In this document: piece after piece, positions 5,834 through 60,194 of the stretch
Position numbering within the stretch: position 1 is the first letter of the stretch
Layout: each line of letters starts with the position of its first letter
Origin: Euglena gracilis
Taxonomy: Eukaryota
NCBI GenBank assembly: GCA_039621445.1
Contig: CP154954.1
Span: 36,751,703 to 36,815,702, forward strand
Reading direction: 5' to 3'
Length of the DNA stretch: 64,000 nt
Notes under the pieces: model-generated
What the model was told of the DNA's origin: nothing
The model's input: only the letters and a program-made list of their open reading frames with translations
The model's database searches: none
Made by a program: the position numbers and the translations under genes

Positions 5834-5979
5834 GCATGCCCCCCTTCGGCTGCATGGTTTTTTTTTCTGCACAGGTCTCTTTCCATTTTGGGATTTACAG
5901 CTGATATCTCTGTCGGAGACGCTGCAACGCCGTGAATAATTAACACCGCTGCACATGATCATTAAATCTACCCCCCCCA

Positions 5980-8341: not shown

Positions 8342-11193
8342 GACCTGGTCCGGGAGGCTGGTCGCACTTATTAGCAACCCCTTTTCTGGCCGTTGATGCA
8401 ATCTGGCCCTGAAAATCACGCCCCCACGCCCCGATTAAGACCCCAAAATTGTCAAATTCCTGCATTCGGGGGGTTGAGCAGTTGTATTCCCCCCCCCCCC
8501 CGAATGGCAGAATTTTGACATTTTTTGGGCGTTAGTCGGGGCGTGGTGTGTGCCAAAATGTGCCACCTGCCCCCGGGACCAGGTCAGCTGGGTTCCCCAC
8601 CCCCCAAAAACCCCATTAATACCAGAACCCCTGCTGCTCCCGGGGACAGACAGGTGGCACTTTCTGGCACCCCCCAATTCTTGGGATTGTGGCAACCTTG
8701 CCCCAAAAATGAGATGTCTGGTAAATCAATCTGGGACCCCCAGTTAATCGCGGTTATTCGCTTGGTCCCTGCTTTGGCGGGAAATTGATCATTCCTGCCA
8801 CCCCTTTGGTGGAGCAGCACATCTTTCCCAGCCGGTTCCTAATTTGGTTTCAAAACCAACTTTCGAGAGCGGGTATTCCGAATTTATGGGAAAATACCTT
8901 GGGTTCGGTGAATTTGGCAACGGAAAATGTGGTGTTCCCCCGTGACCCGAACCATCCCCTGTGCATGTGACGCTTCCTTACGCACCTTCTGCAGATTCAA
9001 TTGCAAGATATGGCAATGCATTGAGATTGAGCAATTACCACGCTTTGGATGGAACCTGACTTTGAAACGATTTGGAAGATGATAACAAAGATTTGGATGA
9101 TGATTGTTGTAAAGGTGATGTCTCTCACGAGGTCTAAAGTGACAGCATCAAACGTGCATTTGATTCAGCAAGGGAAAGCACGAGGTCAACGGTTGAAAAT
9201 TGTCAAAATTTTGCAATTCGAGGGTTGAGCAGCTGTATCCTCCCCCCGAAATTTTGACAATTTTTGGGTGTTAACCGGGGCATGGGGTGTGCCAAAACAT
9301 GCCTCCAACCCCCGGGACCAGATCAGCTGGGTTCCCCACCCCCCAAAACCCCCATGAATATCAGAACCACTGCTGCTCAACACCCCCTATATAGCAGAAT
9401 TGTCACTTGTCATATAGCAGAATTTGGGTGTTAACAGGGGGGGGCGTGGGGGCGTGATTCCCACCCCCAAAAACCCCAGAATCACCTGAGCCGCTGCTGG
9501 TCACCACCCCACAATCACAAAATTTTGCTTTTTTTTGTGCGATTTGGGACCGTCTGTGCCACCGCCACCCCTCCCCCCCAAACAGTACGGTCAAAACGGC
9601 AGGGTTTTTGGTTCGTGAAGGAACAGGGTTAGGGTTACTGTCAGGGACCCAGTCCGGGGGCTGGTGGCACGTTTTGGCACCCCGCATTTCCTCGCATTCA
9701 ATCTGGCTTTGAAAACCCCCCCCCCCCCCCCCCCCCCCCTCAACAGCTGGAAATTGTCAAAATTTTGCAATTCGGGGGGTTGAGCAGCTGTATCCCCCCC
9801 AAAATTTGACATTTTTTGAATCAATTGGGGCATGGTGTGTGCCAAAACGTCCCACCAGCCCCCGGGACCAGGTCAGCTGGGCTCCCCACCCCCCAAAACC
9901 CCCATGAATATCAGAACCACTGCTGCTCAACCCCCATCATCATTATCATCACACTCACAATGGTTTTATAAAAATAAATTTGCAATAATGCATGTTGGGC
10001 CAGCCCTCATTTGGCGAGGGCTGCAATCCCCACAACACCCACAAGTCGCCTAGCGGTTTGTTAGTTGTTTTTATTTTCTTTGCTTTTAGTTGTTCCCCAC
10101 CCCAAATGCAAACCCCCAAACTTCCCCCCCCCCCCCCCCCCCCGCCCCCGAAGGCTTTTTGTTGAACCCCGGTGCAAACAATTGATTGAGTGAATCCACA
10201 TGAAATGAGGACAATTACCTCTTTTTACCACTTTTTTTAATTGCACCAAAAGCTGCCCCCAGACCAGCAAAGCAAAACCTGCAGGGTTTGAATGGAACTC
10301 CACTCCCTGAATTTCATGGATTCCTTTTAAGACCAGGGGTCGACCCCCCCATCACAGCACCATTGGTGCCACCAGTGCGGAAGGAAATTTTTGACCAAAA
10401 AAATCGGTGCCCTTGAGAAGAATGCTCGACAGGGTTGTGTCCAGTACAACAGTACACCCCCAAATCAACGACTGGGGGGGGGTCTGGACCCTTGCTTTTG
10501 GTGGGGGGGTTTGGGCTGCAGCCTGAGTATCATAATTGAGGGGTGGGTGATTGCCCCGCATTTTCAGGTCGACCTCTCAGCACGCGGGCGGCCACTGCAC
10601 CCTGCTCCCCCGGCAATACAATATGGTCCGGGACAATGCGCGCGCACGTGCAAACATTCTGGGTTACGAGAACATGTGGTCACCATTAAAACAGAAGATC
10701 AGAAATTCAGGTGAACTGAGTTTTTTTATTATTTTTGAATGGTCGTGATTTTCAGGAAAAATTCTGGAAAAAAATGGAATACATGCAAGTATATTAAGTA
10801 TAATAAGAATAATGAATACGTCTTTTGTAGGTATTAATGGGTTAATCTGACAGGAAATCTTTTCATTGCATTCTCCTCTGGCTGGGGACAACTTTGGTCG
10901 GTGTTTTGGTGAGGCATCTGCCAGTTTTTTTTTTCCCTTGGTTGCGGGGGTGAGCAGGGGGTTGGCACTCAGCCCCATCTCCAGTCCACCTCGGAGCCAT
11001 GGTGCTGCTGCTGCTGCCATCGCCAACCGAGCACCCGTTCCCCACCCGCCAACTCAGGGCCCCCTGCTCCCACCCGGCAGCTCACCGGTGCTGGGTTTCC
11101 CTCTTCCAACCCGTGGACGCTTGTACCACACCCCCAGGAGTGTGCACCGAATGTGTGCGATGGACACGTGTGGGGGCATATGATGGTGGAGTG

Positions 11194-11648
11194 CAGGGGG
11201 GGGGAAAATGCGTTTCGCATTTTTTCGCATTTTTGCGCATTTTTTCAAATTTTCCAAAAATGCGCATTTTTGCGCATTTTTTCGCATTTTTTGCGCATTT
11301 TTTCGTTTTTTTTTTGGCGCATTTTTTTGCTTTTTGGCACATTTTTTCGTGATTTTCCAAAAATTTCGCATTTTTTGAGCATTTTTGCAATTTTTTGCAA
11401 AAATTCGAAATTTTCGACTTTTTTTGAAACTTACATTTTCCTCATTATTCTACATAATTTCTTCAAATTTGGTGCCATTTTTGCATGTTTTTTGGTAAAT
11501 TTTGCATTTTCGTGATTTTTGCGCATTTTTTCTCGGATTTTGCACATTTTTGCGCATTTTTTCCAAAAATGCGCATTTTTTGCGCATTTTTTTGCGCATT
11601 TTTGCGCATTTTTTCCGAGGCCGGGCGAGCGCATTTCCCCCCCCCCTG
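11194..11648. mobile_element. hAT-like MITE with internal (TTTTGCGCAT)-type tandem repeats
   Basis: TIR CA(G)nAAAATGCG ... CGCATTT(C)nTG. Flanking direct repeat TGGAGTG (7-8 bp). Interior is 10-12-bp repeats. Confidence 0.85.
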
Positions 11649-12064
11649 TGGAGTGGAATGGAAGCATGCTTTTCCCCCTCCTCAACCCGGCGAACCCGGC
11701 ATGGTATGAGCAGGGGTCACTGAAGGGATCCGGCAGGCGGCAGCGAAGGCACGGGTGGTAGGCGCAGGGCGTGCGCAGGGGCATATGCGAAGCAGCACCT
11801 CTGCACACCTCTCGCCGCAAACCGCTCAGGTGTGCACTGCTGGATTGGCGGGAACACACACGAAGAGAAGTGTCGCGCTTGACTTCAGTCAAAAATGGCA
11901 GGATGGAAACAAGGAAGGCGGTGGAGCGCATGGATTCGAAGTTTCCAAAGGCATTATATTTTGCTTTTCATCCTCACCATGCAATTGTTCGATGTAGGTT
12001 CTTTTTTCATTCGGGGGGCAAGGGGTGACTGGTTTTTTCTGAAACTGGATTGCAGTATGGTGTG

Positions 12065-12342
12065 CAGGCTTCTTTTTAAGTCAGCAGACCCCCCCCCCCC
12101 CCCGGGGGGGGAGGGGGGTGGGTGGGTGGGTCCGGGCCGGACCCCCCCCCCGGGGGGGGTCCCGCGCCGGAGGCGCTGGGTATACCTTTTCGGCGCGAAG
12201 CGCCGAAAATTTTTGAAAATTGCCTTTAACGGGCCCGATTTTGGGTGAGTCCCCGCCCCCCCCCCCTGGGGGTTCCGCGCCACCCTGGGTGGGTGGGGGG
12301 GACCCCCCCCGCCCCCCCCCCGGGGGCTTAAAAAGAAGCCTG
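12065..12342. mobile_element. hAT-like MITE (CAGGCTTCTTTTTAAG family)
   Basis: Perfect 16-bp TIR and perfect 8-bp TSD ATGGTGTG (12057-12064 / 12343-12350). Second copy at 36565-36804. Confidence 0.95.
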
Positions 12343-13079
12343 ATGGTGTGTTTTCCCTCATTATTTTGCATCTTTGCCCACCGGTACATTCAGGTTCTCT
12401 CCACCATGAAGTTCGACTTCGACGTGTCTGCTGCCCATGCCAGCCCAGCACCCACCCCCACCTGCCTGCCCAGTGCCCGATGCTACCTCAACAGTTGTGC
12501 ATGTTGTTCGCAGATCGCAGATGTGCATGTTTTTGGCAAACGCTCGCGCGCGCACACACAGACACACACACACACACACACACACAATGAAGGTTCAGCG
12601 TCCAACGCACGGCACATGCAGTCCACCAGGGTTCGCATTTTTTCCCCAGTTGGGTATGTTGCCAAGGAGCACTGAAGGCAGCGGCAACCACAGGAGCGCA
12701 GAAGCAGCAGCAACAGGAGCGCAGGAGCAGCAGCGCCTCCGGCCTGGCGTCCCCATCATTTTGGGGTTGGTTTGATTTAGCAGAGGTGTGGTGAAGGCTA
12801 CAACGGGTTGGGCCAGCGGTTAATTTAAAGAAATTTATCACCAAGATGCAGGGGGGGGGCACATTTTTTTTGTCTTTTGAAAACGCCACCGATCCCTCAG
12901 TTTGTACCATCCCACCGATGCCCTCGGGGCAGGTGAATTTGGTGTGTTCATAGAGAAGCCATGTGGCTTGTTCCTGTTGCCAATTTCCTGTGAAATTTCC
13001 TGTGAAATTTGTTCTCAGTTTTGTGATATTTGATTTTCATTTTTAAGATTTGTGAAAATTTTTTGATTTTTTCCCATGT

Positions 13080-13800
13080 GGGCGGGGTTGCAGCCTGCCC
13101 ATATGCCTCCCCACCACCAGACACATGATGTCCCGAGGCATTTATGATCCCCAGCCAGACAATGGGTGAAAGGTGGTTAGTGGTGGCCAATGGTCAACTG
13201 CTTCTGGCCGTGTTCTTGGCCTGCTTTCCTGCTCTTTCTGCCCTTCTTCCTTCGTTCACCCTGGCCACCTCCTTTTGACGCGGTCTTGCGTCGTTCTGCA
13301 GCGCTTCAGCAGCTTTGAAGCAGTTTTGCCACCTTGGACCTGTCTTGAGGGCTTTGGTCTTGCACTTGCTGTGGTTCAGCTTTGGCTGCTTTGGACCTCT
13401 TTCCGCTTCGCAGTGGCCATCTTGGCCACATTGGGCCCTGCTCACCGTGCTTTGGCTGCAAAGGCAGCCAAAAGGTTTGCTTTGGCCAGCTTGAGTTTCT
13501 ACCAGTGCTCTATCTGCTCCTCACATCTTGTGCCTGTTTTCTTTGGCCACCCTGTTTGTTTCTTGGGTCGTGCCAGAAACAAGGCCATTGTATGAGGTTT
13601 AGGTTCAGGCATTGGATGATAAGTGCCTCGCCATGCCATGCATTTGATTTGATCCACTGACCAATGTTGATGTTGTCTCCTGATGTTTGGTGGTGGGTGG
13701 CATTGGGCCTGGGCAGACAATGCCGGCTGTGTTGACACACCACATCTGTTTTGTGTTTTTTTTTTGCAGCAACACACTTCCAGAACAGAGCAGTTGGTTC
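13080..13800 (-). pseudogene. Decayed coding remnant: K/A-rich stretch followed by MPRDIMCLVVGRHMGRLQP motif
   Basis: Minus strand reads EHW*KLKLAKANLLAAFAAKAR*AGPNVAKMATAKRKE with stops. The terminal motif is shared with remnants at ~3800, ~34170, ~41540, ~51440 and ~56620. Confidence 0.35.
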
Positions 13801-15179
13801 CACCAGAACCCAACCCCCAGTGGGAAAGAACCTCTAAGTGGTGGCTGTGTGCTTAGTCTGGGCGCGCTTTTTTTTCAGTCTAATTAGTTCAAGTGCCCCC
13901 CCCCCCCCCTCCCCGTGCGATGAAATGGACCCCTCCTCTGTGGGGACTGAACCAAAGGGTTGGCCGTCCGTTTTGGTGGGGCAGCATGGGTTGAAGCCGT
14001 ACACAGAGAAACAGGCACCAATGCTTTGCACTCTGGGATGGGCAACACCGGGGTCGCCAGAAGGCAGCCCCGCCGCAGCCGCTGGCAGAGTGGCGGAGGC
14101 GGGCGGGCCGGAGCAGCATGCGCCCAGCCGCGACGGCGAAGATGAGGCGTGCGCGTGTGGGGAGGTGTTTGGGTTTCCGTGTGAGGAGTTTTTTTTTTGT
14201 GGGGGGCTGGACTCCCCCCTCCGCTCCGGAATTTTTTTGGGTGTTTTTTGGCCTAAATCCATTGCTTTTGAGGCAGTTTTCCCTCGGTGTCTCCAGAGCA
14301 ACCGACTCCCCCCAGGTGGGGGGAGGGTGGGAAATGAGTGATTGGTTTTGAAAAGTGGCTGACCGGTTTTTTTTTCTGAAGTGGATGGTGACCTCGTTTC
14401 AAATGAACGACAGTTTTTTGAACATCATTCTGGTCTCCCCGTGAGCCCCTGCAAATTGTCGGCACTTGACAGTGAAATTTTTTTTAAAAAAGGCCCAGCA
14501 TATATTTTTCCTCCAAAAAAAGGGAAATCGTTTTGATGGGCAGGCAGTCATTGGTTGGGCTGCGGCCAGCTGTGGCCCAACCAAAACCGCAATCTTATCA
14601 AAATTTTCGAGTTTGTTGGGCTTCACTTGGCATTCTTTCATTCTCTATCCTTGCCAATTCTTCTTTTTGCTGAAACGGAGGGCCTCACTTTCAGGGGGGT
14701 GTGGCTGTGCATGTGTTTGAATGTGTCTTTGATGGTGCCCCCCCCCCACCGTTCATCTCCCCATTCTCCTCTCCCCCTCAGGGCTTCTCATACGCCCCTG
14801 CCACACTCGACGGACCGTTCTTCCCAGAGAAGGTGTGGCACTGCTGTTATGCGGCCAAGGAGTGCTGACCTCACAAATGGCAGGCGTTTTCCTTTTGAGG
14901 GCGATGCCAGTTGTGTGTTGCCCTGCTTGTTGGCCAAAGGAGCGGTTCGGCAGTCCAGGGCTCTAACAGGTGGGGAGAAGGGCCACTGGAGGCACCAATT
15001 CATCCCGAAAAATTCCTGAAGTTTGCAATTCGGGGGTGTGGTTCCGGTAATAATGGGGTTTCCATGACGGGGAACCCAGCTTGGTCCCTGGGGCGGGCAC
15101 CCCCCCAGGCACCTCTCACCACCCTTGGCATTTTGCCATTTCGGCCCAAGATTTTTCCAGTGTGGAAAATGCTTTGCAT

Positions 15180-16000
15180 TGATGATGTGGTTTTCTTTGA
15201 GAAGTTTGGTTGATCAATTTGGGACCCCCAGTTAATCGCGGTTAATTGTTTATTCCCCGCTTTGGCCACCCTCTGTGGGGGTCCAGGCAGCACCTCTTTC
15301 CCAGCCGGTTCTCAAATTGGTGTGAAATCCAATTTTCAGTAGTGGGTATGCCTGATTTTGGAAAAAAATTTTCCACATCTTGGGTTCGGTCGATTTGGCG
15401 ACCGAAAATGTGGTGTTCCCCCGCTGGTCCAAACCACCCCCTGTGCATGTGACGCTCCTTCCGCACCTTCTGCAGATCCATTGCAAGAAATGATGATTCA
15501 TTGAGATTGAGCAATCACCATGCTTCGGACGAAACCTGATTTTGAAACAATTGAATATTTGGAAGACGATGACGCAGATTCGGATGACGGTTGTTATGAA
15601 GGTGATGTCTCTCACCACGTCAAAAGGGACAATATTGAGTGTTTTTGATTCAGCAAAAAAAGGCACGAGGTTTGTCGAAAATCGAAAACAACCAACCAAT
15701 TTTGTTTTACCAATTTTTTGACACCCATTTTATTTTTGCCAGTCAATGGGAACCAAAATGTTGTAAAATGTGACACAAAGCTTTTGAAGCAGCCCTCGTT
15801 GGGGAACAATTGGAAAAGGGCAACCCTGTGTTGGGGGATGCAAACAGGGAATTGGCAATCGGTGAATTGGATGAAATACTGGATCATTTTTTGAAATGTG
15901 AGATTCAGGCAAGCTTTCCAGGAAAAGAACAGGAAAGATGTGTTTTAGAGAATTGGGAATGCCATCCACCACAAAGGTGTGTGTGCTTGACCACAAGCAT
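15180..16000 (+). pseudogene. Dispersed repeat with decayed exon-like acidic coding sequence
   Basis: After ccttctgcag: ...MLRTKPDFETIEYLEDDDADSDDGCYEGDVSH, then ...HKAFEAALVGEQLEKGNPVLGDANRELAIGELDEILDHF, with stops and frameshifts. Partial copies at ~6740-7730, ~8710-9185 and ~17690-17980. Confidence 0.5.
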
Positions 16001-16200
16001 TTGAGTGGGGTATTTGAAATTCGATCGAAGGTTGGAGACAAAGGGGGGGGGGCTGGGGTGCGCTCTTGCCCAGGATGAGAGGTCAGCAAACCCCGAATTG
16101 ACCCCCGCCAGTTTGCAATTGGGGGACATTTGTTCAAACGGTTCCGGCAACAATGGGGTTTTTGGGGGGTGGGGAACCCAGCCGACCTGTTCCCGGGGGC

Positions 16201-18863: not shown

Positions 18864-19056
18864 TAACCCCCCCCCCCCTAGTCGTACGACCACCCCTCAT
18901 TTACGACCACCCCCCAGCCACAGGTTGCAGGTCATGGGGGTGTTATGACCACCTCCCCCGGTCACAGGTTGCAGGTTATGGGGGTGTTACGACCACCCCC
19001 CCCCCCCCGGTCACAGGTTGCAGGAACCCGGTCGTACGACTAGGGGAGGGGGGGTA
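18864..19056. mobile_element. TA-flanked MITE (CTAGTCGTACGACC family), nested
   Basis: TAA(C)nTAGTCGTACGACC ... GGTCGTACGACTA(G-rich)TA. Interrupted copy at 35300-36499. Confidence 0.85.
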
Positions 19057-25600: not shown

Positions 25601-28600
25601 GGGGGGGCGTGGGGGCGTGATTTTCGGGGCCAGATTGTCTCATTGCCAGGAAATGGGGTGTGCCAAAACGTCCCACCAGCCCCCGGGACCAGGTCAGCTG
25701 GGTTCCCCACCCCCCAAAACCCCATGAATATCAGCACCACTGCTGCTCAACGCCCCCCAAATAGCAAAATTTTCACAATTTTTGGGTGTTAATCGGGGGG
25801 GGGGGGCGTGGGGGCGTGATTTTCGGGGCCAGATTGGCTCAATGCCAGGAAATGGGGTGCGCCAAAACGTCCCACCAGCCCCCCGGGACCAGGTCAGCTG
25901 GGTTCCCCACCCCCCAAAAACCCATGAATGTCAGCACCACTGCTGCTCAACGCCCCCCAAACAGCAAAATTTCACAATTTTTGGGCGTTAATCAGGGAGG
26001 TGGGGGGCGTGGGGGCGTGATTTTCGGGGCCAGATTGGCTCAATGCCAGGAAATGGGGTGTGCCAAAACGTCCCACCAGCCCCCGGCACCAGGTCAGCTG
26101 GGTTCCCCACCCCCCAAAACCCCATGAATGTCAGCACCACTGCTGCTCAACACCCCCCAAATAGCAAAATTTTCACAATTTTTGGGCGTTGATCGGGGGG
26201 GGGGGGCGTGGGGGCGTGATTTTCGGGGCCAGATTGGCTCAATGCCAGGAAATGGGGTGTGCCAAAACGTCCCACCAGCCCCCGGGACCAGGTCAGCTGG
26301 GTTCCCCACCCCCCAAAACCCCATGAATATCAGCACCACTGCTGCTCAACGCCCCCCAAATAGCAAAATTTTCACAATTTTTGGGTGCTAATAGGGGGGG
26401 CGGCGTGGGGGCGTGATTTTCGGGGCCAGATTGGCTCAATGCCAGGAAATGGGCCCATTTCCTGGCATTGAGGCAATCTGGCCCCGAAAATCACGCCCCC
26501 ACACCCCCCCCCCCCCCCCCCCCGATTAACGCCCCAAAATTGTGAAAATTTTGCTATTTGGGGGTCGTTGAGCAGCAGTGGTGCTGACATTCATGGGGTT
26601 TTGGGGTGTGGGGAACCCAGCTGACCCGCTCCCGGGGGCTGGTAGGACGTTTTGGCACACCCCATTTCCTGGCATTGAGGCAATCTGGCCCCAAAAATCA
26701 CGCCCCCCCCCCCGATTAACGCCCAAAATTTGTGAAAATTTTGCTATTTGGGGGCAGGGTTCGATATAAGGAGGGCGTACATGGTTTAGGTGGGGGGGGG
26801 GGCCCCCCCCCCCCCCCCCCCCCCTCCAGGCCGCCAGGGGGGGGCCCGGACCACCCCCCCCCCCACCTGCAAGGGGGGTCCGGACCGACCCTCGGGGGCA
26901 AAAATTGACCCCCCCCAAAAAGGGTCAATTTTTTCCTCCGGCGCTTCGCGCCGAAAATTTTTTGCATTTTTGGCACATTTTTGCCCAAAAAGTGCCCAAA
27001 ATGGCACTTTTGGTCGTTTTGGGGGGGCAAAAATTTTCGGCCCGGCGCTTCGCGCCGGGCCGAAAATTCGGCCACCCTGACCGCGCACCTGTTTAGGTGG
27101 GGGGGGTGTCCCCCCCACCCCCCCCCCCCTCCTGGCCCGCGGGGGGGGGTCCGGACCACCCCCCCCCCACCTGTCCTTATATCGAACCCTGTTTGGGGGG
27201 CGTTGAGCAGCAGTGGTGCTGATATTCATGGGGTTTTGGGGGGTGGGGAACCCAGCTGACCTGGTTCCGGGGGCTGGTGGGACGTTTTGGCACACGTGTG
27301 CCAAAATGTCACACCAGCTCCCGGGAGCAGGTCAGCTGGGTTCCCCACCCCCCAAAAACCCATGAATATCAGAACCATTGCTGCTCAACCCCCCCCCAAA
27401 TAGCAAAATTTTCACAATTTTTGGGTGTTAACCGGAGGGGGGGGGGGCGTGGGGGCGTGATTTTGGCGGCCAGATTGCCTCAATGCCAGGAAATGGGGTG
27501 TGCCAAAGCGTCCCACCAGCCCCCGGGACCAGGTCAGCTGGGTTCCCCACCCCCCAAAACCCCATGAATATCAGAACCACTGCTGCTCAACCCCCCCAAA
27601 TAGCAAATTTTTCACAATTTTTGGGTGTTAACCGGAGGGGGGGGGGCGTGGGGGCGTGATTTTCGGGGCCAGATTGCCTCAATGCCAGGAAATGGGGTGT
27701 GCCAAAGCGTCCCACCAGCCCCCGGGACCAGGTCAGCTGGGTTCCCCACCCCCCCAAAACCCCATGAATATCAGAACCACTGCTGCTCAACCCCCCCAAA
27801 TAGCAAATTTCTCACAATTTTTGGGTGTTGGGGGGGGCGTGGGGGCGTGATTTTCGGGGCCAGATTGCCTCAATGCCAGGAAATGGGGTGTGCCAAAGCG
27901 TCCCACCAGCCCCCGGGACCAGGTCAGCTGGGTTCCCCACCCCCCAAAACCCCATGAATATCAGAACCACTGCTGCTCAACCCCCCCAAATAGCAAAATT
28001 TTCACAATTTTTGGGTGTTAACCGGAGGGGGGGGGGCGTGGGGGCGTGATTTTCGGGGCCAGATTGCCTCAATGCCAGGAAATGGGGTGTGCCAAAACGT
28101 CCCACCAGCCCCCGGGACCAGGTCAGCTGGGCTCCCCACCCCCCAAAACCCCATGAATATCAGAACCACTGCTGCTCAACCCCCCCCCCAAATAGCAAAT
28201 TTCTCACAATTTTTGGGTGTTAACCGGAGGGGGGGGGGGCGTGGGGGCGTGATTTTCGCGGCCAGATTGCCTCAATGCCAGGAAATGGGGTGTGCCAAAA
28301 CGTCCCACCAGCCCCCGGGACCAGGTCAGCTGGGCTCCCCACCCCCCAAAAACCCCATGAATATCAGAACCACTGCTGCTCAACCCCCCCCAAATAGCAA
28401 ATTTCTCACAATTTTTGGGTGTTAACCGGAGGGGGGGGGGGGCATGAGGGTGTGATTTTCGGGGCCAGATTGCCTCAATGCCAGGAAATGGGGTGTGCCA
28501 AAACGTCCCACCAGCCCCCGGGACCAGGTCAGCTGGGTTCCCCACCCCCCAAAACCCCATGAATATCAGAACCACTGCTGCTCAACCCCCCCCCAAATAG

Positions 28601-35225: not shown

Positions 35226-35327
35226 TTAGTACATTAGAGTGAGTAGTCGGCCAACCAGTCGGCCGACTACCCACGCCCCCCCCCCCCCGTCTCGCTGACT
35301 ACCCCCCCCCCCTAGTCGTACGACCAC

Positions 35328-35798
35328 CATACATCTCTCTAAGGTTTTGCGAACTCCCCCGGGGGGGGGGGGGGGGGGGCTGCAGCCAGCCCCGATTTCG
35401 GCCCAGCCCAGCCGCAACAGCCCCCTCCCCCGCGGGGGGGGGGGGTGCTGCTGGCCCCAGCTAGCCAGCCCCCTTTTGGGGGTCCAGCCCAAAATTTTTC
35501 GGTGCCGAAATTTTTTTGAAAAACTGTGTTCGAAAGTGGCCAAAAATGGGGTTTGGGGGGGTTTGGGGCATTTTTGAGTGGTTTCAGATGCATCATTTTT
35601 TCAAAGCTGTGTTCTGCAGGTCATTTTTGGGCATTTTTCCGATTTCAGTCCAGCTCGCCCCGGTTCGGGTCCAGCCGGGGTCCAGCCCCCCCCCCCCCCC
35701 CCCCCGGGGGGGCTAGCCAGCCCAAATTTCTAGCCAGCCCAAATTTCTAGCCCTAGCCCAGCAACCCCCCCCCCCCGGGGTCCTTAAAGAGATGTATG
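35328..35798. mobile_element. hAT-like MITE (CATACATCTCT family)
   Basis: TIR CATACATCTCT(C/T)TAAGG. Perfect TSD ACGACCAC (35320-35327 / 35799-35806). Confidence 0.93.
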
Positions 35799-35833
35799 AC
35801 GACCACCCCTCATTTACGACCACCCCCGGTCAC

Positions 35834-36338: not shown

Positions 36339-36564
36339 CCGGTCACAGGTTGCAGGCCATGGGGGTGTTATGACCCCCCCTCCTGGTCACAGGTTGCGAA
36401 AAATTTAACACCACCTCACCTACGACCGCCCCCTCAGTTACGACCCCCCCCCCCGGTCACAGGTTGCAGGAACCCGGTCATACGACTGGGGGGGGGGTAG
36501 TTACCGACCAGGCCGAGTCGGCCGACCAATTGGGTAGTCGACCGACTAGTTCTAGTACTAGTTC

Positions 36565-36804
36565 CAGGCTTCTTTTTAAGTCACCTGACCCCCCCCCCCA
36601 CCGGGGGGTGGGTGGGTGGGTCCGGGCCGGACCCCCCCCCCCCGCGCCGGAGGCGCTGGGTATACCTTTTCGGCGCAAAGCGCCGAAAATTTTTGAAAAT
36701 TGCCTTTAACGGGCCCGATTTTGGGGGGGGGTTCCCGCGCCACCCTGGGTGGGTGGGGGGGGGACACCCCCTCCCCCCCCCCGGGGGTCTTAAAAAGAAG
36801 CCTG
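36565..36804. mobile_element. hAT-like MITE (CAGGCTTCTTTTTAAG family)
   Basis: Perfect 16-bp TIR and perfect TSD ACTAGTTC. Confidence 0.95.
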
Positions 36805-37654
36805 ACTAGTTCTAGTACGACTGCCCAATACCCCCCCAGTCTGGTGCTAGAGGCTGGTCGCACTTATTGGCAACCCCCTTTTCTGGGCATTGACGCAATC
36901 TGGCCCCAAAAATGATTGCCCCCACGCCTCGATTTAACAGCCAAAAACTGTCAGAATTTTTGCAATTCGGGGGGTTGAGCAGCTGTATTCCCCCCTCCCC
37001 AAATGGCAAAAATTTGATTTTTTTTGTGCATTAGTCGGGGCGTGGTGTGTGCTAAAACTTGCCACCTGCCCCCGGGACCAGGTCAGCTGGGTTCCCCACC
37101 CCCCAAAACCCCAGAATCACCTGAACCGCTGCTGGTCAGCATCCCACAATCGCAAAATTTTGGCAATTTTTCGGTGTAAATTGGGGGCGATTGTTCGCTG
37201 CACGACCGCCCCCCCCCCCAAATGGCAGGGTCAAAAATTTTGGTTTGTGAAGGAACAGGTCCCGGGGGCTGGTGGCGCTTTTTGGCCCCCCATATTTCCT
37301 GCATTCAATCTGGCCTTGAAAATCACGCCCCCACGGCCCGATTGTCGAAATTTTGTAATTCGGGGGGGGGGGGTGGAGCAGCTGTATTCCCACCCCCGAA
37401 TAACAAAATTTTAAGAAAAGCCCCTCAATGATCCCATTAACCCAGAACCACTGCTACTCAACCCCCCCAAATAGCAAAATTTTCACAATTTTTGGGTGTT
37501 AATCGGCGGGGGGGGGGGGCGTGGGGGCGTGATTTTCGGGGCCAGATTACCCCAATGCCAGGAAGTGGTGTGTGCTAAAACTTGCCACCAGCCCCCGGGA
37601 CCAGGTCAGCTGGGTTCCCCACCCCCCAAAAACCCCACTGTTTCGTAAGTGAAA

Positions 37655-39879: not shown

Positions 39880-40269
39880 CAGGGTTCGATATAAGGAGGG
39901 CGTACATGGTTTAGGTGGGGGGGTGTCCCCCCCCCCCCCCCCCCCTCCTGGCCCGCAGGGGGGGGGGTCCGGACCACCCCCCCCCCACCTGCAAGGGGGG
40001 TCCGGACCGACCCTGGGGGGCAAAAATTGACCCCCCCCCAAAAGGGTCATTTTTTTGCTTTGCGCCGAAATTTTTTTGCATTTTTGGCACATTTTTGCCC
40101 AAAAAGTGCCCAAAATGGCACTTTTGGTCGTTTTGGGGGGTCAAAAATTTTCGGCCACCCTGACCGCGCACCTGTTTAGGTGGGGGGGTGCCCCCCCCCC
40201 CCCCCCCCCCTCCTGGCCCGCAGGGGGGGTCCGGACCACCCCCCCCACCTGTCCTTATATCGAACCCGG
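39880..40269. mobile_element. hAT-like MITE (CAGGGTTCGATATAAGGA family)
   Basis: Colinear with 26755-27191. Right end tccttatatcgaacccgg. TSD imperfect. Confidence 0.9.
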
Positions 40270-43285: not shown

Positions 43286-43498
43286 GCTGGTCGCAAAGCA
43301 ATGGGCCGCTGGCACTGTCGACGCCAGCGCCGGCTGCCGAAGCGGGCCCCGGCCGCAGGGCCCCCCCGACCCCGGCAGCTCAGGGCTGCCGCGCGTCGGG
43401 ACGTCGCTGGCCGGCAGCGCAGCGCAGCGGGCGAAGGAGCCCGCCGTGCTGCTGCGGTGCCCCCACACGCCTGAAGACCTGAAGGTGTGGCACTACAC

Positions 43499-44004
43499 CA
43501 GGGATGGATGGCAAGCCCTTCGGTATTGAGGTAGGTGGTGGGGGGGTCCCGACCACCCCCCCCCCCCAGGGGGTAAGGTGGTGGGGGGTCCGGACCCCCG
43601 TCCCAACATCTAGGGGGGGGGGTGGTCCGGACCCCCCCCCCTCCTTGACAGGTGCCAAAAATAGCAGAAAATTTTCTTCCGGCGCGCAGCGAGCAAAATG
43701 AGCAAAAACATCCCTTTTTGCTCACTTTTGGACATATTGCCCTTTTTTTGATGTGTTGGTGTTTTCCCCCCAAAAATTGTTCAAAAAATTTCAAAAAACG
43801 TTTTTGGATCGATTTTCAAAGAAAAATCAGGGATTTTTGACCGATTTTGACCCGATTTCTGGCCCTTTGCCCGTCCATGAAATCGAAAATTTTTCGGCCC
43901 CCCCTCAGTTTCGAGGTAGGAGGGGGGGGGGGCCGACCCCCCCCCCCCCCGTGTCGGGAGGGGGGGTCCGCCCCCCCCCCCTCAAGGCTTCCCATCCATC
44001 CCTG
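43499..44004. mobile_element. hAT-like MITE (CAGGGATGGATGG family)
   Basis: TIR CAGGGATGGATGG(C/G)AAGCC. Flanks cactacac / cactgccc (6/8). Empty site gtgg-cgctgccc-aaaag at ~5385. Second copy at ~63326-63831. Confidence 0.88.
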
Positions 44005-44072
44005 CACTGCCCCGAAACTCGATGCCGACCTTGCATCCATCCAACCCCAGGGTACTAAGCGAGCGTTTAGGC

Positions 44073-44332
44073 CAGGATTTTTTTTAGTTGTGGACCCCGG
44101 TGGGGGGGGTAGGGTGAGTGGGTCTGGCCGAGCCCCCCCCCCCCCCCGGGCCCCCCCCAAGGGGGGTGGGATATATTTTTCGGCGCCAAAGGCGCCGAAC
44201 AAGTGCTATTTTTAGCATTTTTCACAATCTTTCGGCCATTTTTTTTGTGGGTCCCCCGGGACCCCCCCCCCCCAGGGGGCAGGGGGTGGGTGGGTGGGGG
44301 TCCCCTCCCCCCCCGGTCTTAAAAAATTGCTG
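44073..44332. mobile_element. hAT-like MITE (CAGG..TTTTTTTA family)
   Basis: caggatttttttta ... taaaaaattgctg. Flanks gtttaggc / gtttaggg (7/8). Relatives at 59419-59653, ~33154-33257 and ~55371-55610. Confidence 0.75.
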
Positions 44333-44770
44333 GTTTAGGGGCAACCACCCCCAGCCCCTTCTCAGGGTAGGCGGGGAGGTCCGGAAACTCCTCTCAAAAT
44401 TACCAGAAAATTTTCTTCCGTGGCGCTTTGCACTGACAGATTTATGTTGCTATCATCTGTTTTTTTGGGGTTCTTGGGGTTAAAAAAAAATCGACTGTTT
44501 GGCATCATTGGCAGTTTCTTTTTTGGATTTTTTTTTGCAGTTGTGATTGTTTGATCCCCGGTGATTTGGCCTAGCTCCAGCCCGGGACCCCTACAGGGGG
44601 GGGGTCAGCAAGCAGCGTTTTTTTTAGCCTGCCCAAATTTTCCAGCCTCTGTGCTGTGGACCCTGGGGGGGAGGGAGCCTGAAACAACGCCCTGGTGGGA
44701 AGCGCAGTCGGCGTGTCAGGTGACAGATCCTTTTGGAGATTCAACTACGTTTTTTGCCTCTTTCTCTCAG

Positions 44771-48689: not shown

Positions 48690-49760
48690 CTCAGAAGTGG
48701 TTGAATACCAAATTTTACCAAAATATTTTTTTGTCCACTCCTGCTTTTTTGTTTGTCTAGCAAGCTCTTTGGCAATTTTTAGATGAAAATGAATATGAAG
48801 ACGGGAAAACCCAACACGTTAGTTTTGGGTCTGTTTGAGCCTGAGGGGCCTGAGGGCCTGAGGGGCTTGGAGGTTATTGAGTGTTTTCCCGTTGGTGGTG
48901 ACTGGTTTTTTTTTGTTGAAAGGGGGCTGCAGCACGCTGCAGTTTTCCCCAGAATTTGGTGTTGTTGGGGTTGTTGGAATCCTCAATTTTGGTTACCTTG
49001 GCCTCTGCGGAGGCTCCGCGGAGGCTGGGCACCTGCGGAGGCAACCAGTTTTGTATGCGGGCCACATCTGGAAAAAAAAATAAATAATGTTTTATGGGTT
49101 GACCACAACCTCCCCCCCCCACAGGCCCCCCCCCCCACCCCCCTCCCCTCTCCCCCCCTACAGCCCAACCCCCCTGCCCCTCCCCCCCTCCCCCGCTCCC
49201 CAATGACAGAATCTTTTTGTGTGGACAAAGTTTGATGGACATGACGTAAATGGCAAACTGGTAAACGGTAAAAGCAAATTCAGGTGGACAGGCTGTTTTT
49301 GTGGCAAACGGATAAATGGTTTTCAACAAGTTTGGCGGGCATGGCGTTAATAGCAAAGGGGTGAACAGTCTGCTCCACATCAGGCGGACATGGCGCTTTT
49401 GTGACAAATGGCAAATGGCGTTTTTATGCAAGCATGTGAGATGGAAAAAAAATGTTTTGTTTTTTTTGTGGGGATGTGGGCGGTGGCGGGGTGAAAACAA
49501 AATTTGAATTTTTTTAGGGGATACAAGGGCAAAAAAATGGAACGGTGGGGTAGGGGGTGGGGCAGAAACCCCCCAAATGTTTTTTGTTTAATTGCTTTTC
49601 TTGCGGAGAGTCGGGGGTGCAAAGATTAAAATACAATTCCTCTCTTTCTGGGCGTTAGTGTGGGGGCCGTGGGGAGGGTGTGCCCCCCCCAGGCATTTCA
49701 CGTGACAAATCCGCGTTCAGTTCTTGGTTCACACCATGCTCTGGCAAAATTGGTTGGGAG

Positions 49761-50124
49761 CAGACAATTGCTTAAGCACTGTCCCCCCCCCCCCCCCCCC
49801 CCCCCCGGGGGGGTGGGTGACTGGTTTTTTCACAGTGACTGACTGGTTTTTGGGCCCGGACCCCTCCCCCCCCCCCCGGGGGGGGTCGGCCAGGAGTGGG
49901 CAAAAGTGGCTTGAGTGACCCCGGCGCCGAAGGCGCCGGAAAATTTTTTTGGGCCTAAAATGGCCTAAAGTGACTGGAAAGTGGCCGTTTTTCTGAGTGG
50001 CCGCCCCCCCCCCCCCCCCGGTAGTGACTGGCTGGTTTTTTGAAAATGAGTGACTGACTGGTTTTTAAAAAAGTGGAGTGACCCCCCTCCCCCCCCCCCG
50101 GGGGGGGCGGTAAGCAATTGTATG
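49761..50124. mobile_element. hAT-like MITE (CA(G/T)ACAATTGCTTA family)
   Basis: TIR cagacaattgctta / taagcaattgtatg. Perfect TSD GTTGGGAG. Internal gtgactgactgg repeats. Confidence 0.92.
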
Positions 50125-50670
50125 GTTGGGAGGGGAATGGTGGGTGGGTCCGGCTGAGCGGAGTACATCCCCCGGGGAGGGCATACTTTTTGGTGCCAAA
50201 GGGGCAAACTTTTCTCAAAAGGCGTGCTTTTTAGCATTTTTCGTGATTTTTTGGCCATTTTCAAGGGAAAGTGAGGGGGTCCCCGGGACCCCCTGGGGGG
50301 CCTCCCCAAGGGGTGGGGGGAGGGGAGCCTGAGCCCCTTCCCTCAGCTCATGCTCCGCAGAAGCAACCCAAAAGTTAGGATTCTACTTGCGCGGTGGACG
50401 CATATGGTTGCTCCCCACCCCCCTCGGCATTCAGGTCCCCTCCACCATGCAGCGCCGCGCCGCCCATTGAGCCCAACGCCCACCTCCCCCTGCCAGTCCA
50501 ATGCCCCCTGCCACCAGAAAGCATCCCGCGGTTGTCATTTTTTTTTTTAGGAGCTGGACCTGTCTTTGGTGGCCATGCAATGCACTACAGGCAAAAAGTT
50601 GTGCACATACACATGAGAACGCTTGTGCACATACACATGCACAATACGCACCCACACCCACACCCACCCA

Positions 50671-57300: not shown

Positions 57301-58583
57301 CAACCTGGCGCCCCCGGCGTTGATGACGGCAGCCGGAGGCGGGCAGCGGCGGCCGCATATCGCAAGCTGATGGCAGCCCAGAGGTGCGTGTGTGCGTGGG
57401 CCCATGTCTGTCAAAATCTCAGACCAGGGTTTGATGTAGGGTGTCATGGCTTCGGTTTTGCCGTTACCCCTGACTGCAGGGAGGATGCCAATGACCCCAC
57501 CCACCTGCTCAGGGAAGGTGTCCAGACCGACCCCAGAGGGGCCCCCAGAGCGTCGAGATTTTCTTTTCCGGCGCCCTGCACGCAAACTTTTTTAGGCATT
57601 TTTCGGCAAAATGTGCCCCAAAATGTGCCCCAAATAATGTTTTGGGTTGATTTGGGGTGACATTCCCCCATCCCTTCTCGCCAGGCCAAAAGTCAGTCTG
57701 TTTGGCCGCCCTGTTGTTCAGGTTGGGGATTGACCATTTTGCCCCGGGTGCTTGCGAATGGGGGGAAAATGGTGGAAATCCTGTGAAAGAGTTGTATATC
57801 GTCTCCAAACGGTTTTACACCAGGGGGTCAGGCAGCTTCCGAACTGCTTGGATCAGCTTTCCTTCCATTCCTTTTCACTGCAGACGGATTTTCTGGGTTG
57901 TGCTGCCTTCCTTTCAGGAAATTATGTTTTTTTGCATAATATTTCTTGAAACTTTTTCAAGGGAGTTGCAACTGACCTGGGTTGGGAAATGGAATTCTCC
58001 TGTCTGGCAAACCAGACTCTTCTGGGTTGTGCCTGGGAAATCATCTTGAGTCCATTGTTTATCGGGGCATCCGCTCCCTTGGTGAAATCAGTTGCTTTCC
58101 TGAAAGAAATGAATTGATGAAACACTCCAAAAGGACACAACGCAAACTTCTGGGGCAGAGGTCGACATAAAGGCAAGGTTGGGGGGTCCGCCCATTTTGA
58201 TCCGCAACCCAGCCACTTAGGGGGTGACGAGCCATTAGGCAAAAATCTTCAGAAGTACTTTTTTTATGTCTTTTTTTTGAAGGTTTTTTTGAGGGTTTTT
58301 TAAGGCATTACCAAAATTTGAAGAATTTTTTAAGGCGTCTATTTTTCATGAGTGGTCAAAGTGCTTTTCGGACATCGAATCAACGTCGGTCCAGATTGAG
58401 AATCTTTTTTTTGAGCTTTGAGTGGCTGGACAATGTTCAAGCGATGCCAGAAATCTCATTTTTTCCCGCAGTTGACCTGTTTTTGCTGAGTTTTTGCAAT
58501 TTCTTTTTTTGCTCAGAATACGAAAATTTTCCCGGGCCATTTTTTTTTCAGTGTTTTCGGTTTGCCAGGGGGGGGGGGTCCAG

Positions 58584-58985
58584 CAGGGTTCGATATAAGG
58601 AGGGCGTACATGGTTTAGGTGGGGGGTGCCCCCCCCCCCCCCCCTCCTGGCCCGCGGGGGGGGTCCGGCCCCCCCCCCCACCTGCAAGGGGGGTCCCCGG
58701 GACCCCCCCAAAAAGGGTCAATTTTTTCCTCCGGCGCTTCGCGCCGAAAATTTTTTGCATTTTTGGTCAATTTTTGCCCAAAAAGTGCCCAAAGTGGCAC
58801 TTTTGGTCGTTTTGGGGGGTCAAAATTTTTCGGCCCGGCGCTTTGCGCCGGGCCGAAAATCGGTCACCCTGACCGCGCCACTGTTTAGGTGGGGGGTGTC
58901 CCCCCCCCCCCCCCCCCCCCCTCCTCGGCCCCGGGGGGGGGTTCCGCCCCCCCCCCCCCCCCCTCCTCTCCTTTTTCGAACCCTG
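58584..58985. mobile_element. hAT-like MITE (CAGGGTTCGATATAAGGA family)
   Basis: Colinear with 26755-27191. Flanks gggtccag / gggtccac (7/8). Confidence 0.92.
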
Positions 58986-59418
58986 GGGTCCACCCAAGTG
59001 TGCCTGCATGTTTTCCAGCCAGGATCTCCCAACCGGGTTGTGGACCCACCCTCAGGGTCCGCTGGGGAACACCCCGCTGTGGACCAGCCCGGCGAAGACC
59101 GAGAAAAAAAACCCTTGCATTCTCTCCCTCATCCATCCCCCCATTCTCAGGTGACAGGGCATTGACCTGCAAGGAGCTGTGTGCCTGGCCCTGGGTGGCC
59201 ACAGTTGCACTCCCTCAAGCCCCCTGGGAATTGGGAAGGTCCTCCAGGTGTTCCCCAACAAGAAGGCGCAGTATTTGCAGCCGAAGGACGGTTGTCTGGA
59301 AGGTGTGGCAATGCTGCCGTCTTTGTGGTTGTGTTCTAAAATGAGTTTCTTTTTTGAAGAGTGATGTAACCCCCCCATTTATAATCCCCTCATTAACCCC
59401 CCTGTTTTTGACCCCAAC

Positions 59419-59653
59419 CAGGGGTTTTTTTTTTAGCCTTGTGGACCCCTGGGGGGGGGTAGGGTGGGTGGGTTTGGCCGAGCCTCCCCCCCCTCACCCG
59501 GGGTGGGGGGTGGGATATATGTTTCGGTGCCGAAAGTTTTTGAAAAAGGTGCCATTCTTAGCATTTTTCGCGATTTTTTGGCCATTTTTGGGGGAAAAGT
59601 GGGTGGGATCCCCCCTCCCCCACTCCCGGTCTTTTTTTTAAAAAAAACCCCTG
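59419..59653. mobile_element. hAT-like MITE (CAGGGGTTTTTTTT family)
   Basis: TIR cagggg(t)n / (a)ncccctg. Flanks accccaac / cccccaac (7/8). Confidence 0.85.
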
Positions 59654-60194
59654 CCCCCAACCCCCAAATTGTGATTTATGACTCCCCCGAAGGCAAAAAA
59701 ATGCTGAGGAATCAAAAGGCAAAAATGTGCCAAAATTGTTGTGCTGAAAAAAAACAGGTGTGGGGTAGCCTGGCACTGAGGGGTTTTGGCAAAATCCCGT
59801 GAAATTGCCCAAAATATTTTGTTTTACCCCTCTGGTGCGCAAGTCAGGGGTATTTTTTGGGACGGTTTTTTGGGCCACACACCAAATCTCGATTTATAAC
59901 CCCCCCCCCCGCTTTGGACCGATGAAGAAAGTTAGTGGGGGTTTCAGAATTCCAAAAATGTCCAAAACAGCGGTCGTAGTATTTTTTTTTATTTTTGTTT
60001 GACGTGTGTTTGCCCCCCTCCCCCATCCGGCATTCTTGTGTTTCCGGAGGCGCTGATTTTGGGCCAAGCTTTTGTTTTGGCGCGGACGGAATTTTTTTTG
60101 TGTGGTGGGGTCGGGTCGTATCCCTCCCCTCAGCAGGCTTTCCCTTACAGCCCTGGGTTGGTTTGAGTCGGGGTCTGGGGCCGAGACCCCCCAC

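Follow-up and report, generated by a model that had tools for sequence, protein, structure and literature searches.

The nonconventional introns of euglenids, whose origin and mechanism of removal have been in question since the 1990s, represent 71.8% of the introns of E. agilis (PMC12501133; this and the other articles given by number are cited for excerpts of their text). Their code was defined experimentally and reads 5'-N3-CDG/CH'G-N5-6|R, with strict spacers of 3 nt and 5(-6) nt, paired ends and a purine as the first base of the acceptor exon (PMC12501133). The motifs CAG(G) and (C)CTG are located at +4..+7 and -9..-6, and a recently gained intron of gapC, intron 4 in E. agilis ACOI 323, carries eight-nucleotide direct repeats (PMC4770533); in E. 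gracilis, CCAGG is found at +3..+7 and CCTG at -9..-6 (PMC11170887). An origin from MITEs was proposed in 2014, when, according to the excerpt of that article, no transposons were known in euglenids (PMC3935182), and was repeated in 2024-2025 (PMC12501133, PMC11282704); in the excerpts of this literature it is a suggestion with no named source element. No report of hAT-like MITE families in Euglena, or of the equality between 3 + 5 nt and the TSD length, was found in the literature searched, mostly open-access articles without their supplements.

Among the described transposons, hAT elements have 8-bp TSDs and TIRs of 10-25 bp (PMC3942097), and the end of Ac/Ds is C/TAGGGATGAAA, with TSDs of 8 bp (PMC3260210). 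The Merlin elements of E. gracilis have 5'-GG ends and 8-bp TSDs (PMC8101967).

A stretch of DNA of 64,000 nucleotides (hereafter, the window) was analysed and found to contain at least 12 elements of about eight families, with a common build consisting of a CAG(G) start, a (C)CTG end and an 8-bp TSD (Table 1). Should the host be a euglenid, the window offers specific families as candidates, together with the numerical prediction that offsets of 3 + 5 equal a TSD of 8, which is open to testing with available genomes, RNA-seq data and the knock-in assay already described (PMC12501133). In any other host, the elements would be ordinary hAT-like MITEs, with unusual arms of C/G runs, and of little interest.

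Structure of the elements and their insertion sites

An unbiased scan of the window was carried out for CA[GT]...[CA]TG pairs with a spacing of 80-1500 nt and an end complementarity of at least 12/14. A total of 169 pairs was obtained, and the identity of their flanks was bimodal: 0-4/8 in 159 pairs, 5/8 in none, and 6-8/8 in 10, six of them perfect. Pairs of low identity were within the 200-bp satellite in 124 of 159 cases. The pair 18719-19510, with a TSD of 7/8 in the scan, was rejected as an element because its apparent TSD, TGTCGACA, is part of a longer palindrome. When the right flank was shifted to 12 other offsets, 0-3 pairs with an identity of at least 6 were obtained, except for the shift of -1, which gave 10 pairs, accounted for by eight palindrome pairs of the satellite, the element I1 and the G-run of B1. 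Block shuffles (n = 20) contained 3-10 TIR pairs each, and a TSD identity of at least 6 was found in 0/20. The bimodal flank identity, the clean shift controls and the shuffles thus indicate that the TSD/TIR pattern is not due to chance.

Empty sites were also detected. The insertion site of B1 is one unit of the 200-bp satellite, and its predicted empty site is present in 29 copies in the neighbouring units, with 1-5 substitutions and no indels. The empty site of E1 is exact (36/36), and the host repeat, after removal of C1 and E1, is colinear in alignment with its paralogue, located at about 18867-18972. B1, E1 and C1 are therefore true insertions, on the basis of these empty sites elsewhere in the window, and the TSD length of 8 is set by the shift controls together with the empty sites.

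The set of 12 elements comprises A1, A2, B1, B2, C1, C2, D1, E1, F1, H1, H2 and I1, and the degenerate copy B3 makes 13 tabulated elements. They are non-coding, with lengths of 235-506 bp, and are located in satellite, in other repeats or in sequence of which the window has no second copy. All 12 have a TIR of about 16 nt, starting with CAG(G), or with CAT/CAG in two families, and with TAAG at about positions 13-16; in the shared terminal design it is followed by fold-back arms of C-runs and G-runs. These arms had been pointed out in the preliminary description, and the 13 tabulated elements contain 78 of the 281 C/G runs of at least 7 nt in the window. The complementarity of the TIRs is 16/16 in A1, A2, B1 and C1 and 12-15/16 in the remaining elements. 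TSD identity is at least 6/8 in all 12, being perfect in six (seven with I1) and 6-7/8 in the five others. The eight positions cited in the preliminary description all start with CAGG (8/8), and the TSDs reported for them were recovered, with identities of 8/8 at 12065, 26755, 35834 and 36565, 7/8 at 44073, 58584 and 59419, and 6/8 at 43499.

Within families, A2 shows 81.5% identity to A1 over 281 aligned positions, with identical 16-nt TIRs; B2 is 84.8% identical to B1, and B3 91% over 290 nt; a degenerate relative of F1, designated F2 (about 63326-63831), is 80.7% identical to it. As family copies are 9-20% apart, these copies give no support to recent activity.

Element A1 has TIRs with a complementarity of 16/16 and an exact TSD at both flanks. 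Its interior has a GC content of 72%, eight C/G runs of at least 7 nt and a GC hairpin at the centre, and it folds at -192.7 kcal/mol (z = -4.68), with 0/100 shuffles folding equally well. It is located within 4.6 kb of sequence with no other copy in the window. A1 is very probably one copy of a non-autonomous cut-and-paste DNA transposon (MITE).

Table 1. Elements and empty site located in the window, with their coordinates including both TSD copies, except for the E1 empty site and the GGTA...TACC elements.
Feature	Coordinates	Strand	Element (length)	Ends	TSD (identity)	Remarks
A1	12057..12350	.	12065-12342 (278 bp)	CAGGCTTCTTTTTAAG (12065-12080)...CTTAAAAAGAAGCCTG (12327-12342)	ATGGTGTG at 12057-12064 and 12343-12350 (8/8)
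A2	36557..36812	.	36565-36804 (240 bp)		ACTAGTTC (8/8)	A family
B1	26747..27199	.	26755-27191 (437 bp)	CAGGGTTCGATATAAG...CTTATATCGAACCCTG	TTTGGGGG (8/8)
B2	58576..58993	.	58584-58985 (402 bp)		GGGTCCAG/GGGTCCAC (7/8)	B family; TIR 13/16
B3	39880..40269	.			ambiguous (7/8 or 4/8 by choice of end)	Degenerate B-family copy; 3' end CCGG instead of CCTG
C1	35826..36346	.	35834-36338 (505 bp)	CAGGGAATTTCTTAAG...CTTAAGAAATTCCCTG	CCGGTCAC (8/8)
C2	46315..46704	.	46323-46696 (374 bp)		ACCTGGCC/ACCGGGCC (7/8)	C family; TIR 15/16; 3' end mutated to GTG
D1	49753..50132	.	49761-50124 (364 bp)	CAGACAATTGCTTAAG...GCAATTGTATG	GTTGGGAG (8/8)	Unlike termini, one CAG and one CAT
E1	35320..35806	.	35328-35798 (471 bp)	CATACATCTCTCTAAG...TTAAAGAGATGTATG	ACGACCAC (8/8)	CAT...ATG instead of CAG...CTG
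E1 empty site	18872..18907	+			ACGACCAC, once	Paralogous unbroken E1 target
F1	43491..44012	.	43499-44004 (506 bp)	CAGGGATGGATGG...CCATCCATCCCTG	CACTACAC/CACTGCCC (6/8)
H1	44065..44340	.	44073-44332 (260 bp)	CAGGATTTTTTTTAG...CTTAAAAAATTGCTG	GTTTAGGC/GTTTAGGG (7/8)	TIR 12/16
H2	59411..59661	.	59419-59653 (235 bp)	CAGGGGTTTTTTTT...AAAAAAAACCCCTG	ACCCCAAC/CCCCCAAC (7/8)
I1	11186..11655	.	11194-11647/8 (about 454 bp)	CAGGGGGGGGG...CCCCCCCCCCT(G)	GTGGAGTG (8/8 only with the end ...CCCT, so the terminal G is common to element and TSD)	AT-rich interior, GC 35%
GGTA...TACC	7846-8341			GGTA...TACC	8 bp
GGTA...TACC	16981-17293			GGTA...TACC	8 bp
GGTA...TACC	19257-19491			GGTA...TACC	8 bp

A separate group of elements, with GGTA...TACC ends, is a neighbour of the CAG...CTG elements in the window. 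It is this group, and not the CAG...CTG elements, that resembles the Merlin elements of E. gracilis in its 5'-GG ends and 8-bp TSDs. An ORF with the Merlin domain DDE_Tnp_IS1595 was not detected in the window.

Assignment to a superfamily

The 12 elements all start with CAG or CAT and have a TIR complementarity of 12-16/16 and an 8-bp TSD, as in hAT transposons, and the first 8 nt of the start of family F, CAGGGATG, are those of the 5' end of maize Ac. The preliminary description had cautioned that CAG ends are ordinary for hAT elements; judged by TSD length, TIRs and the Ac-like end, hAT is indeed the best-supported classification, under which these would be Ac-like MITEs of the hAT superfamily, probably moved by a hAT-type transposase coded elsewhere in the genome. 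No hAT, BED or dimerisation domain was detected in 271 ORFs of the window, so the assignment to a superfamily is taken from TSD length and end sequence only. The target consensus of hAT transposons of the Ac group is nTnnnnAn; in the window, A was found at position 7 of the TSD in 6/12 elements (p = 0.03) and T at position 2 in 5/12 (p = 0.13).

The elements share with Ac/Ds and with hAT MITEs (maize Ds1/Ds-like) TSDs of 8 bp that vary in sequence, short TIRs, C/TAG... ends and short non-coding interiors, but their TIRs are of 13-16 bp, in contrast to 11 bp in Ac/Ds. They also differ from hAT MITEs in the TAAG at TIR positions 13-16, the long C-run/G-run arms and a host that is probably a protist. 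Neither TAAG at these positions nor long C-run/G-run fold-back arms are known as features of hAT MITEs. A Ds element reportedly acting as an intron is the subject of Giroux (1994), cited in PMC3935182.

TSDs of P, Merlin and some Mutator elements are likewise of 8-9 bp. An affiliation of the window elements to a superfamily other than hAT, whether P, Merlin, Mutator-like or undescribed, is nevertheless improbable. No linked transposase was found within the window, the TSD length is common to several superfamilies (8-9 bp in Merlin; PMC8101967) and the GGTA...TACC group (at 7846, 16981 and 19257) has 8-bp TSDs as well; however, Merlin ends begin with 5'-GG (PMC8101967) and those of the elements with CAG/CAT, Ac and family F agree over 8 nt, and TIRs of 13-16 nt are within the range of hAT. 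Exact scans with a 24-mer of the ends of the B family and a 21-mer of those of the A family gave no matches in the metagenome contigs or in the viral contigs scanned.

Comparison with the nonconventional-intron code

The geometry given in the preliminary description for euglenid nonconventional introns (CAG at +4..+6, CTG at -8..-6 and paired ends) agrees with the excerpts of PMC12501133, PMC4770533 and PMC11170887, and the proposal of a MITE origin that it mentioned is present in that of PMC3935182. Its equality of 3 + 5 with the TSD of 8 holds, and the CAGG...CCTG ends agree with the published codes: once 3 + 5 nt of the TSDs are counted as intron, CAG(G)/(C)CTG of the window elements falls at +4..+7/-9..-6. 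As 3 + 5 nt equals the 8-bp TSD, excision at those offsets would take the element and one TSD.

With these nucleotides as spacers, CAG...CTG is at the code positions in 9/12 elements, I1 being off by one, and the CDG/CH'G motif fails in E1 (CAT...ATG), D1 (CAG...ATG) and C2 (CAG...GTG). All three CAG:CTG pairs are formed in the MFE fold of 7/9 predicted introns (2/3 in D1 and 0/3 in H2). Element A1, in + orientation, agrees with the published code in every respect: N3, CAG, a 16-bp helix, CTG, N5 and an acceptor G; the intron that had been predicted for it, 12062-12347, has T|G at both junctions. An acceptor purine in at least one orientation was found in 6/9 elements (about 6.75 by chance), and 5/9 followed the full Y|R..Y|R rule in one orientation or both (about 3.9 by chance), in line with the earlier caveat that only some of the TSDs follow the Y|R rule; B2, C1 and E1 have an acceptor pyrimidine in both orientations. 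Since the junction rule is near chance, there is no sign of splicing selection on these copies.

We tentatively propose that the CAGG...CCTG MITE families with 8-bp TSDs may be the mobile source, recognisable to this day, from which the nonconventional introns of euglenids arose. By extrapolation from the published code, a transcribed exonic copy in a euglenid would be expected to be cut at 3 nt upstream of CAG and at 5 nt downstream of CTG, and this excision would eliminate the element and exactly one TSD and restore the target sequence. The splicing code would then be an undoing, at RNA level, of a hAT-type insertion, measured from the TIR helix, and the sole constraint on both offsets would be that their sum is the 8-bp TSD. 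If true, this source would account for the published 69% of 'slidable' nonconventional introns, for the eight-nucleotide junction repeats of the new intron and for the continuous gain of these introns; it would also explain why conservation within the stem is limited to CAG(G)/(C)CTG, this terminal motif being common to many families. The preliminary description is borne out in its geometry and ends, both being in agreement with the published code. The introner system that it put forward would be a further step, and on the other side are the lack of any gene found in the window, the near absence of RNA beside A1 and a Y|R rule that is not enriched.

It is rather unlikely, but has to be weighed, that the elements are ordinary MITEs of a host that lacks nonconventional splicing, such as dinoflagellates or other protists with large genomes, and that the match to the code is a coincidence, which could arise because hAT ends commonly begin with CAG and hAT TSDs are always of 8 bp. 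Searches of the window for Rfam families (rRNA, snRNA) and tRNAs gave no matches, and a Euglena spliced-leader motif was absent from it with up to 3 mismatches. The lack of enrichment of the Y|R rule, the introners with 8-nt TSDs of Polarella (bioRxiv 10.1101/2020.10.14.339549, cited for an excerpt) and the presence of Merlin also in dinoflagellates (PMC8101967) point in the same direction. Several features nevertheless argue against a coincidence. The agreement extends to the fourth base, CAGG/CCTG, with G/C at +7/-9 in 31/55 introns (PMC4770533), and CAG is preceded by C in 7/12 elements and by S in 12/12, which can be compared with the CCAGG of E. gracilis (PMC11170887). The 16-bp helix is near the 3+12-bp helix that is sufficient for artificial introns (PMC12501133), the sizes of 235-506 bp are comparable to a mean intron of slightly more than 500 bp, and the window contains GG-ended elements with 8-bp TSDs, as E. 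gracilis Merlin (PMC8101967), although the argument from the fit to a euglenid is in part circular.

Nonconventional introns and the window elements are alike in their paired ends, similar sizes, frequent C at +3 and junction direct repeats. They differ in that the elements stand alone as insertions in satellite, in repeats and in window-unique sequence, and in that nonconventional introns are defined by a host gene and by removal from RNA, whereas the elements are known from their DNA anatomy. Introners (those of Micromonas and Aureococcus and the 8-nt-TSD classes of Polarella) are also MITE-like, with TIRs and TSDs and a geometry for RNA-level removal of the element plus one TSD. In contrast to the window elements, which end in CTG and have no fixed AG/GT, they are removed by the spliceosome, with GY/AG taken from the element end or the TSD; the removal proposed for the window elements would follow the non-spliceosomal euglenid pathway, measured from the helix.

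The opposite direction, in which nonconventional introns came first and the repeats are intron copies made through an RNA intermediate such as a reinserted excised circle, is extremely unlikely. Release of these introns in the form of full-length circles is documented (PMC11282704), but an RNA-derived copy is not expected to make a fresh 8-bp duplication at each target; the 12 TSD sequences are different, the target is single in the empty sites, and copies are found in satellite DNA, away from any gene.

Coding content and transcription of the window

Pfam searches were performed on 141 ORFs of at least 100 aa, chosen from a total of 265 by leaving out low-entropy frames and three regions of tandem arrays, and gave no credible family, with three matches at E 0.002-0.008. 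No family was obtained from 130 of the 153 ORFs of 45-99 aa in window-unique regions. The preliminary description had noted that no host gene was visible, and the same is seen in these 271 ORFs without a Pfam family. None of the ORFs was protein-like in appearance.

Reads were mapped on positions 4900-20400 (15.5 kb) from two RNA raw-read runs (of which about 5-6% was sampled), one contig run guessed to be of RNA and one DNA run. RNA depth in the bins 10587-11103 and 12655-13171, which flank the two MITE-bearing bins, was 0 and 0 for X21 in both cases, and for X24 it was 0 and 0.36 in the former and 0 and 0.42 in the latter. No RNA run carrying 10001-17100 was listed.

It is very unlikely that the elements function as nonconventional introns in a gene of the window, with A1 excised as 12062-12347. 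A1 (+) satisfies all items of the code and lies within the unique 4.6-kb stretch, and its removal in silico leaves a stop-free frame of 168 codons across the site (59 upstream and 109 downstream). However, this joined frame is not protein-like in appearance, the 271 ORFs gave no Pfam family, RNA is about zero (0-0.42) in the bins beside A1, and B1, E1 and C1 are in satellite or repeat DNA. In this window, where neither a host gene nor a transcript lacking them was found, the elements appear to act as mobile DNA only.

The RNA junction check suggested in the preliminary description was applied to the 15.5 kb around A1: there was almost no RNA beside A1, and the sole informative joint among those listed does not involve this element. 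Reads on A1 were nearly all partial, with loose poly-C/G ends, and no joint at its borders was among the 15 of 346 joints listed. Homopolymer artefacts are the apparent cause both of these loose ends and of the 'goes back' joint 13914->12303. The informative joint, 16972->17294, leaves out 321 nt (ambiguity, 8), corresponding to the GGTA...TACC element 16981-17293 plus one TSD, and because it is also present in the DNA run, it is attributed to empty paralogous sites and not to splicing.

TIR-bounded elements and their insertion

The whole window was scanned for CAG or CAT paired with CTG or ATG at a spacing of 80-1500 nt and with at least 12 of 14 end bases complementary, flanks being ignored. 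The 169 terminal inverted repeat (TIR) pairs obtained fell into two groups by identity of their 8-nt flanks: 0-4 of 8 in 159 pairs (124 of these inside the 200-bp satellite), 5 of 8 in none, and 6-8 of 8 in ten, six of them perfect. One of the ten, 18719-19510, was rejected as an artefact of a longer palindrome. With the right flank displaced to 12 alternative offsets, 0-3 pairs reached an identity of at least 6, except at shift -1, where I1, a G-run and palindromes within the satellite accounted for the excess; 20 block shuffles yielded 3-10 TIR pairs apiece, none with a target-site duplication (TSD) of at least 6. With copies added by similarity, 12 elements had a TSD of at least 6 of 8. Degenerate copies and one fragment were also present. 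Element lengths were 235-506 bp and GC 54-72% (I1 excepted). Of the 281 C/G runs of at least 7 in the window, 78 lay inside 13 elements (the 12 and degenerate B3).

Positions of elements and other repeats in the window
Feature	Group	Position
A1	family A	12065-12342
A2	family A	36565-36804
B1	family B	26755-27191
B2	family B	58584-58985
B3	family B, degenerate	
C1	family C	35834-36338
C2	family C	46323-46696
D1	family D	49761-50124
E1	family E	35328-35798
F1	family F	43499-44004
F2	family F, degenerate	~63326-63831
H1	family H	44073-44332
H2	family H	59419-59653
I1	family I	11194-11647/8
Fragment		near 31370-31662
GG-type copy	Merlin-like	7846-8341
GG-type copy	Merlin-like	16981-17293
GG-type copy	Merlin-like	19257-19491
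200-bp satellite	52.8 copies, 84% match	20491-31009
29-bp minisatellite	18.8 copies	4149-4835
29-bp minisatellite	58 copies	41637-43285

Element A1 (278 bp) was bounded on both sides by the 8-bp direct repeat ATGGTGTG (12057-12350), so the TSD given in the preliminary description is real. Its first and last 16 nt, CAGGCTTCTTTTTAAG and CTTAAAAAGAAGCCTG, were perfectly complementary, and the element was predicted to fold as a long hairpin with the TIR as its closing stem (-192.7 kcal/mol, z = -4.68). All eight positions previously listed as CAG starts carried CAGG.

Each predicted empty site joined the left flank, carrying a single TSD copy, to the right flank. For B1, inserted within a single satellite unit, neighbouring units supplied 29 matches to the empty site, all free of indels and differing from it by 1-5 substitutions. 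That of E1 was matched exactly (36/36) at 18872-18907, and removal of E1 and C1, each with one TSD copy, made the host repeat colinear with a paralogue at ~18867-18972. The elements thus inserted into their present sites and duplicated 8 bp of target in doing so; in the window they are plain insertions, located in satellite, in other repeats and in non-coding DNA that is unique within the window.

Hallmarks of the hAT superfamily are 8-bp TSDs, TIRs of 10-25 bp and ends beginning C/TAG (PMC3942097, PMC3260210). The elements share with Ac/Ds and hAT the 8-bp TSD, short TIRs and C/TAG-type ends, and family F starts with CAGGGATG, identical to the Ac end over its first eight bases (PMC3260210). 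The elements are very probably hAT-like MITEs, a superfamily assignment based on their ends; no transposase was found among the window ORFs. A common end design across families, CAG(G), 8-9 variable bases and then (T)TAAG, suggests that one kind of transposase serves many of them.

Agreement with the nonconventional-intron code

The intron geometry given in the preliminary description was accurate and has since been sharpened experimentally (PMC12501133, PMC4770533, PMC11170887). The code is 5'-N3-CDG/CH'G-N5-6|R; the 3-nt 5' spacer tolerates no length change, the 5-nt 3' spacer tolerates +1, and a purine is preferred in the acceptor exon (PMC12501133). Splicing was normal for artificial 50-bp introns that had CAG and CTG, both spacers and 12 complementary bases. 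Among the nonconventional introns of E. agilis, 61.2% conform to the code and 69.1% are "slidable" through junction direct repeats (PMC12501133). CAG/CTG was reported in 33/55 introns and G/C at +7/-9 in 31/55; a recently gained gapC intron has junction direct repeats of eight nucleotides, which its authors explained by double-strand-break repair (PMC4770533). E. gracilis introns carry CCAGG at +3..+7 and CCTG at -9..-6 (PMC11170887).

Like these introns, most window families have CAGG...CCTG ends, and their TIR helix begins exactly at CAG/CTG; E1, D1 and C2 depart from the CDG/CH'G motif. The published spacers (3 + 5) sum to the 8-bp TSD, as had been proposed. An element of this type, if transcribed in a euglenid exon, would therefore be excised and take one copy of the TSD with it. 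For A1 the predicted intron is 12062-12347, with the anticipated T|G at both junctions. In the part of the published literature that was searched, neither the identity of 3 + 5 with the TSD nor named source elements were found.

The base before CAG (TSD position 8) was C in 7/12 elements and G or C in 12/12 (uncorrected p = 0.02 and 0.0006, respectively), a further agreement with the CCAGG of E. gracilis introns. The base following the 3' CTG showed no bias. A transposase with a symmetric target would not be expected to leave such a difference between the two sides, which may be due to chance at n = 12.

Splicing evidence within the window

No sign of splicing of the elements was found in the window, the RNA reads covering 4900-20400. 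ORFs and a profile search revealed no gene in the window, in line with an earlier caveat. RNA depth was 0-0.42 in the bins flanking two MITE-bearing bins (two runs, sampled at ~5-6%), RNA reads on A1 were partial with homopolymer loose ends, and none of the 15 joints shown, out of 346, lay at the A1 borders. The full Y|R..Y|R pattern in at least one orientation was found in 5/9 elements (~3.9 expected by chance), bearing out the reservation that only some TSDs conform, and a purine at the acceptor in 6/9 (~6.75 expected); neither was enriched.

The proposal of a candidate introner system stood as to geometry, ends and 3 + 5 = 8, but gained no splicing, gene or junction-rule enrichment in the window. 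Since the arithmetic fit to the published code is exact and several independent details are good, the idea is a serious, directly testable lead if the host is a euglenid; we hold it tentatively, as a lead rather than a finding.

The only window-unique bin with clear RNA depth was 13172-13688 (7.3 in X24, first mate on the minus strand; 23.3 in guessed-RNA contigs), ~0.9 kb downstream of A1 with zero coverage between and without a protein-like frame.

Merlin-like elements and other repeats

A second MITE group had GGTA/GGCA...TACC ends and the exact 8-bp TSDs GACCTGGT, CAAAATTG and CCTAACTC. It resembles E. gracilis Merlin, for which PMC8101967 describes GG ends and 8-bp TSDs. Dinoflagellates, a possible alternative as host, have Merlin elements too (PMC8101967), and introners with 8-nt TSDs are described in Polarella (bioRxiv 10.1101/2020.10.14.339549). 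The single clean joint of ambiguity 8, 16972->17294 (321 skipped) at the second copy, was also present in the DNA run and therefore marks empty paralogous sites.

The satellite changes orientation at about 26.5 kb, which produces inverted arms of 214 nt. Both minisatellite arrays (unit GCCGAAGCAAGCAAATGGCCGCCGGCGTG) yield long stop-free frames on both strands. Telomere-like runs of TTAGGG/TTTAGGG, together with the complementary runs, are in palindromic arrangement at 18730-19260; the repeat that they enclose is a paralogue of the sequence hosting E1 and C1. The region 60300-61700 is AT-rich (the GC content of 60001-62000 is 0.37), has nested inverted repeats, 77-82 nt long, at 60869-61623 and gave no Pfam match; it may be a fold-back element. 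Segmental duplicates of 78-93% identity (50352-53201 and 55640-58122; 31682-32823 and 37183-38170) contain CA/GT-rich microsatellite-like tracts.
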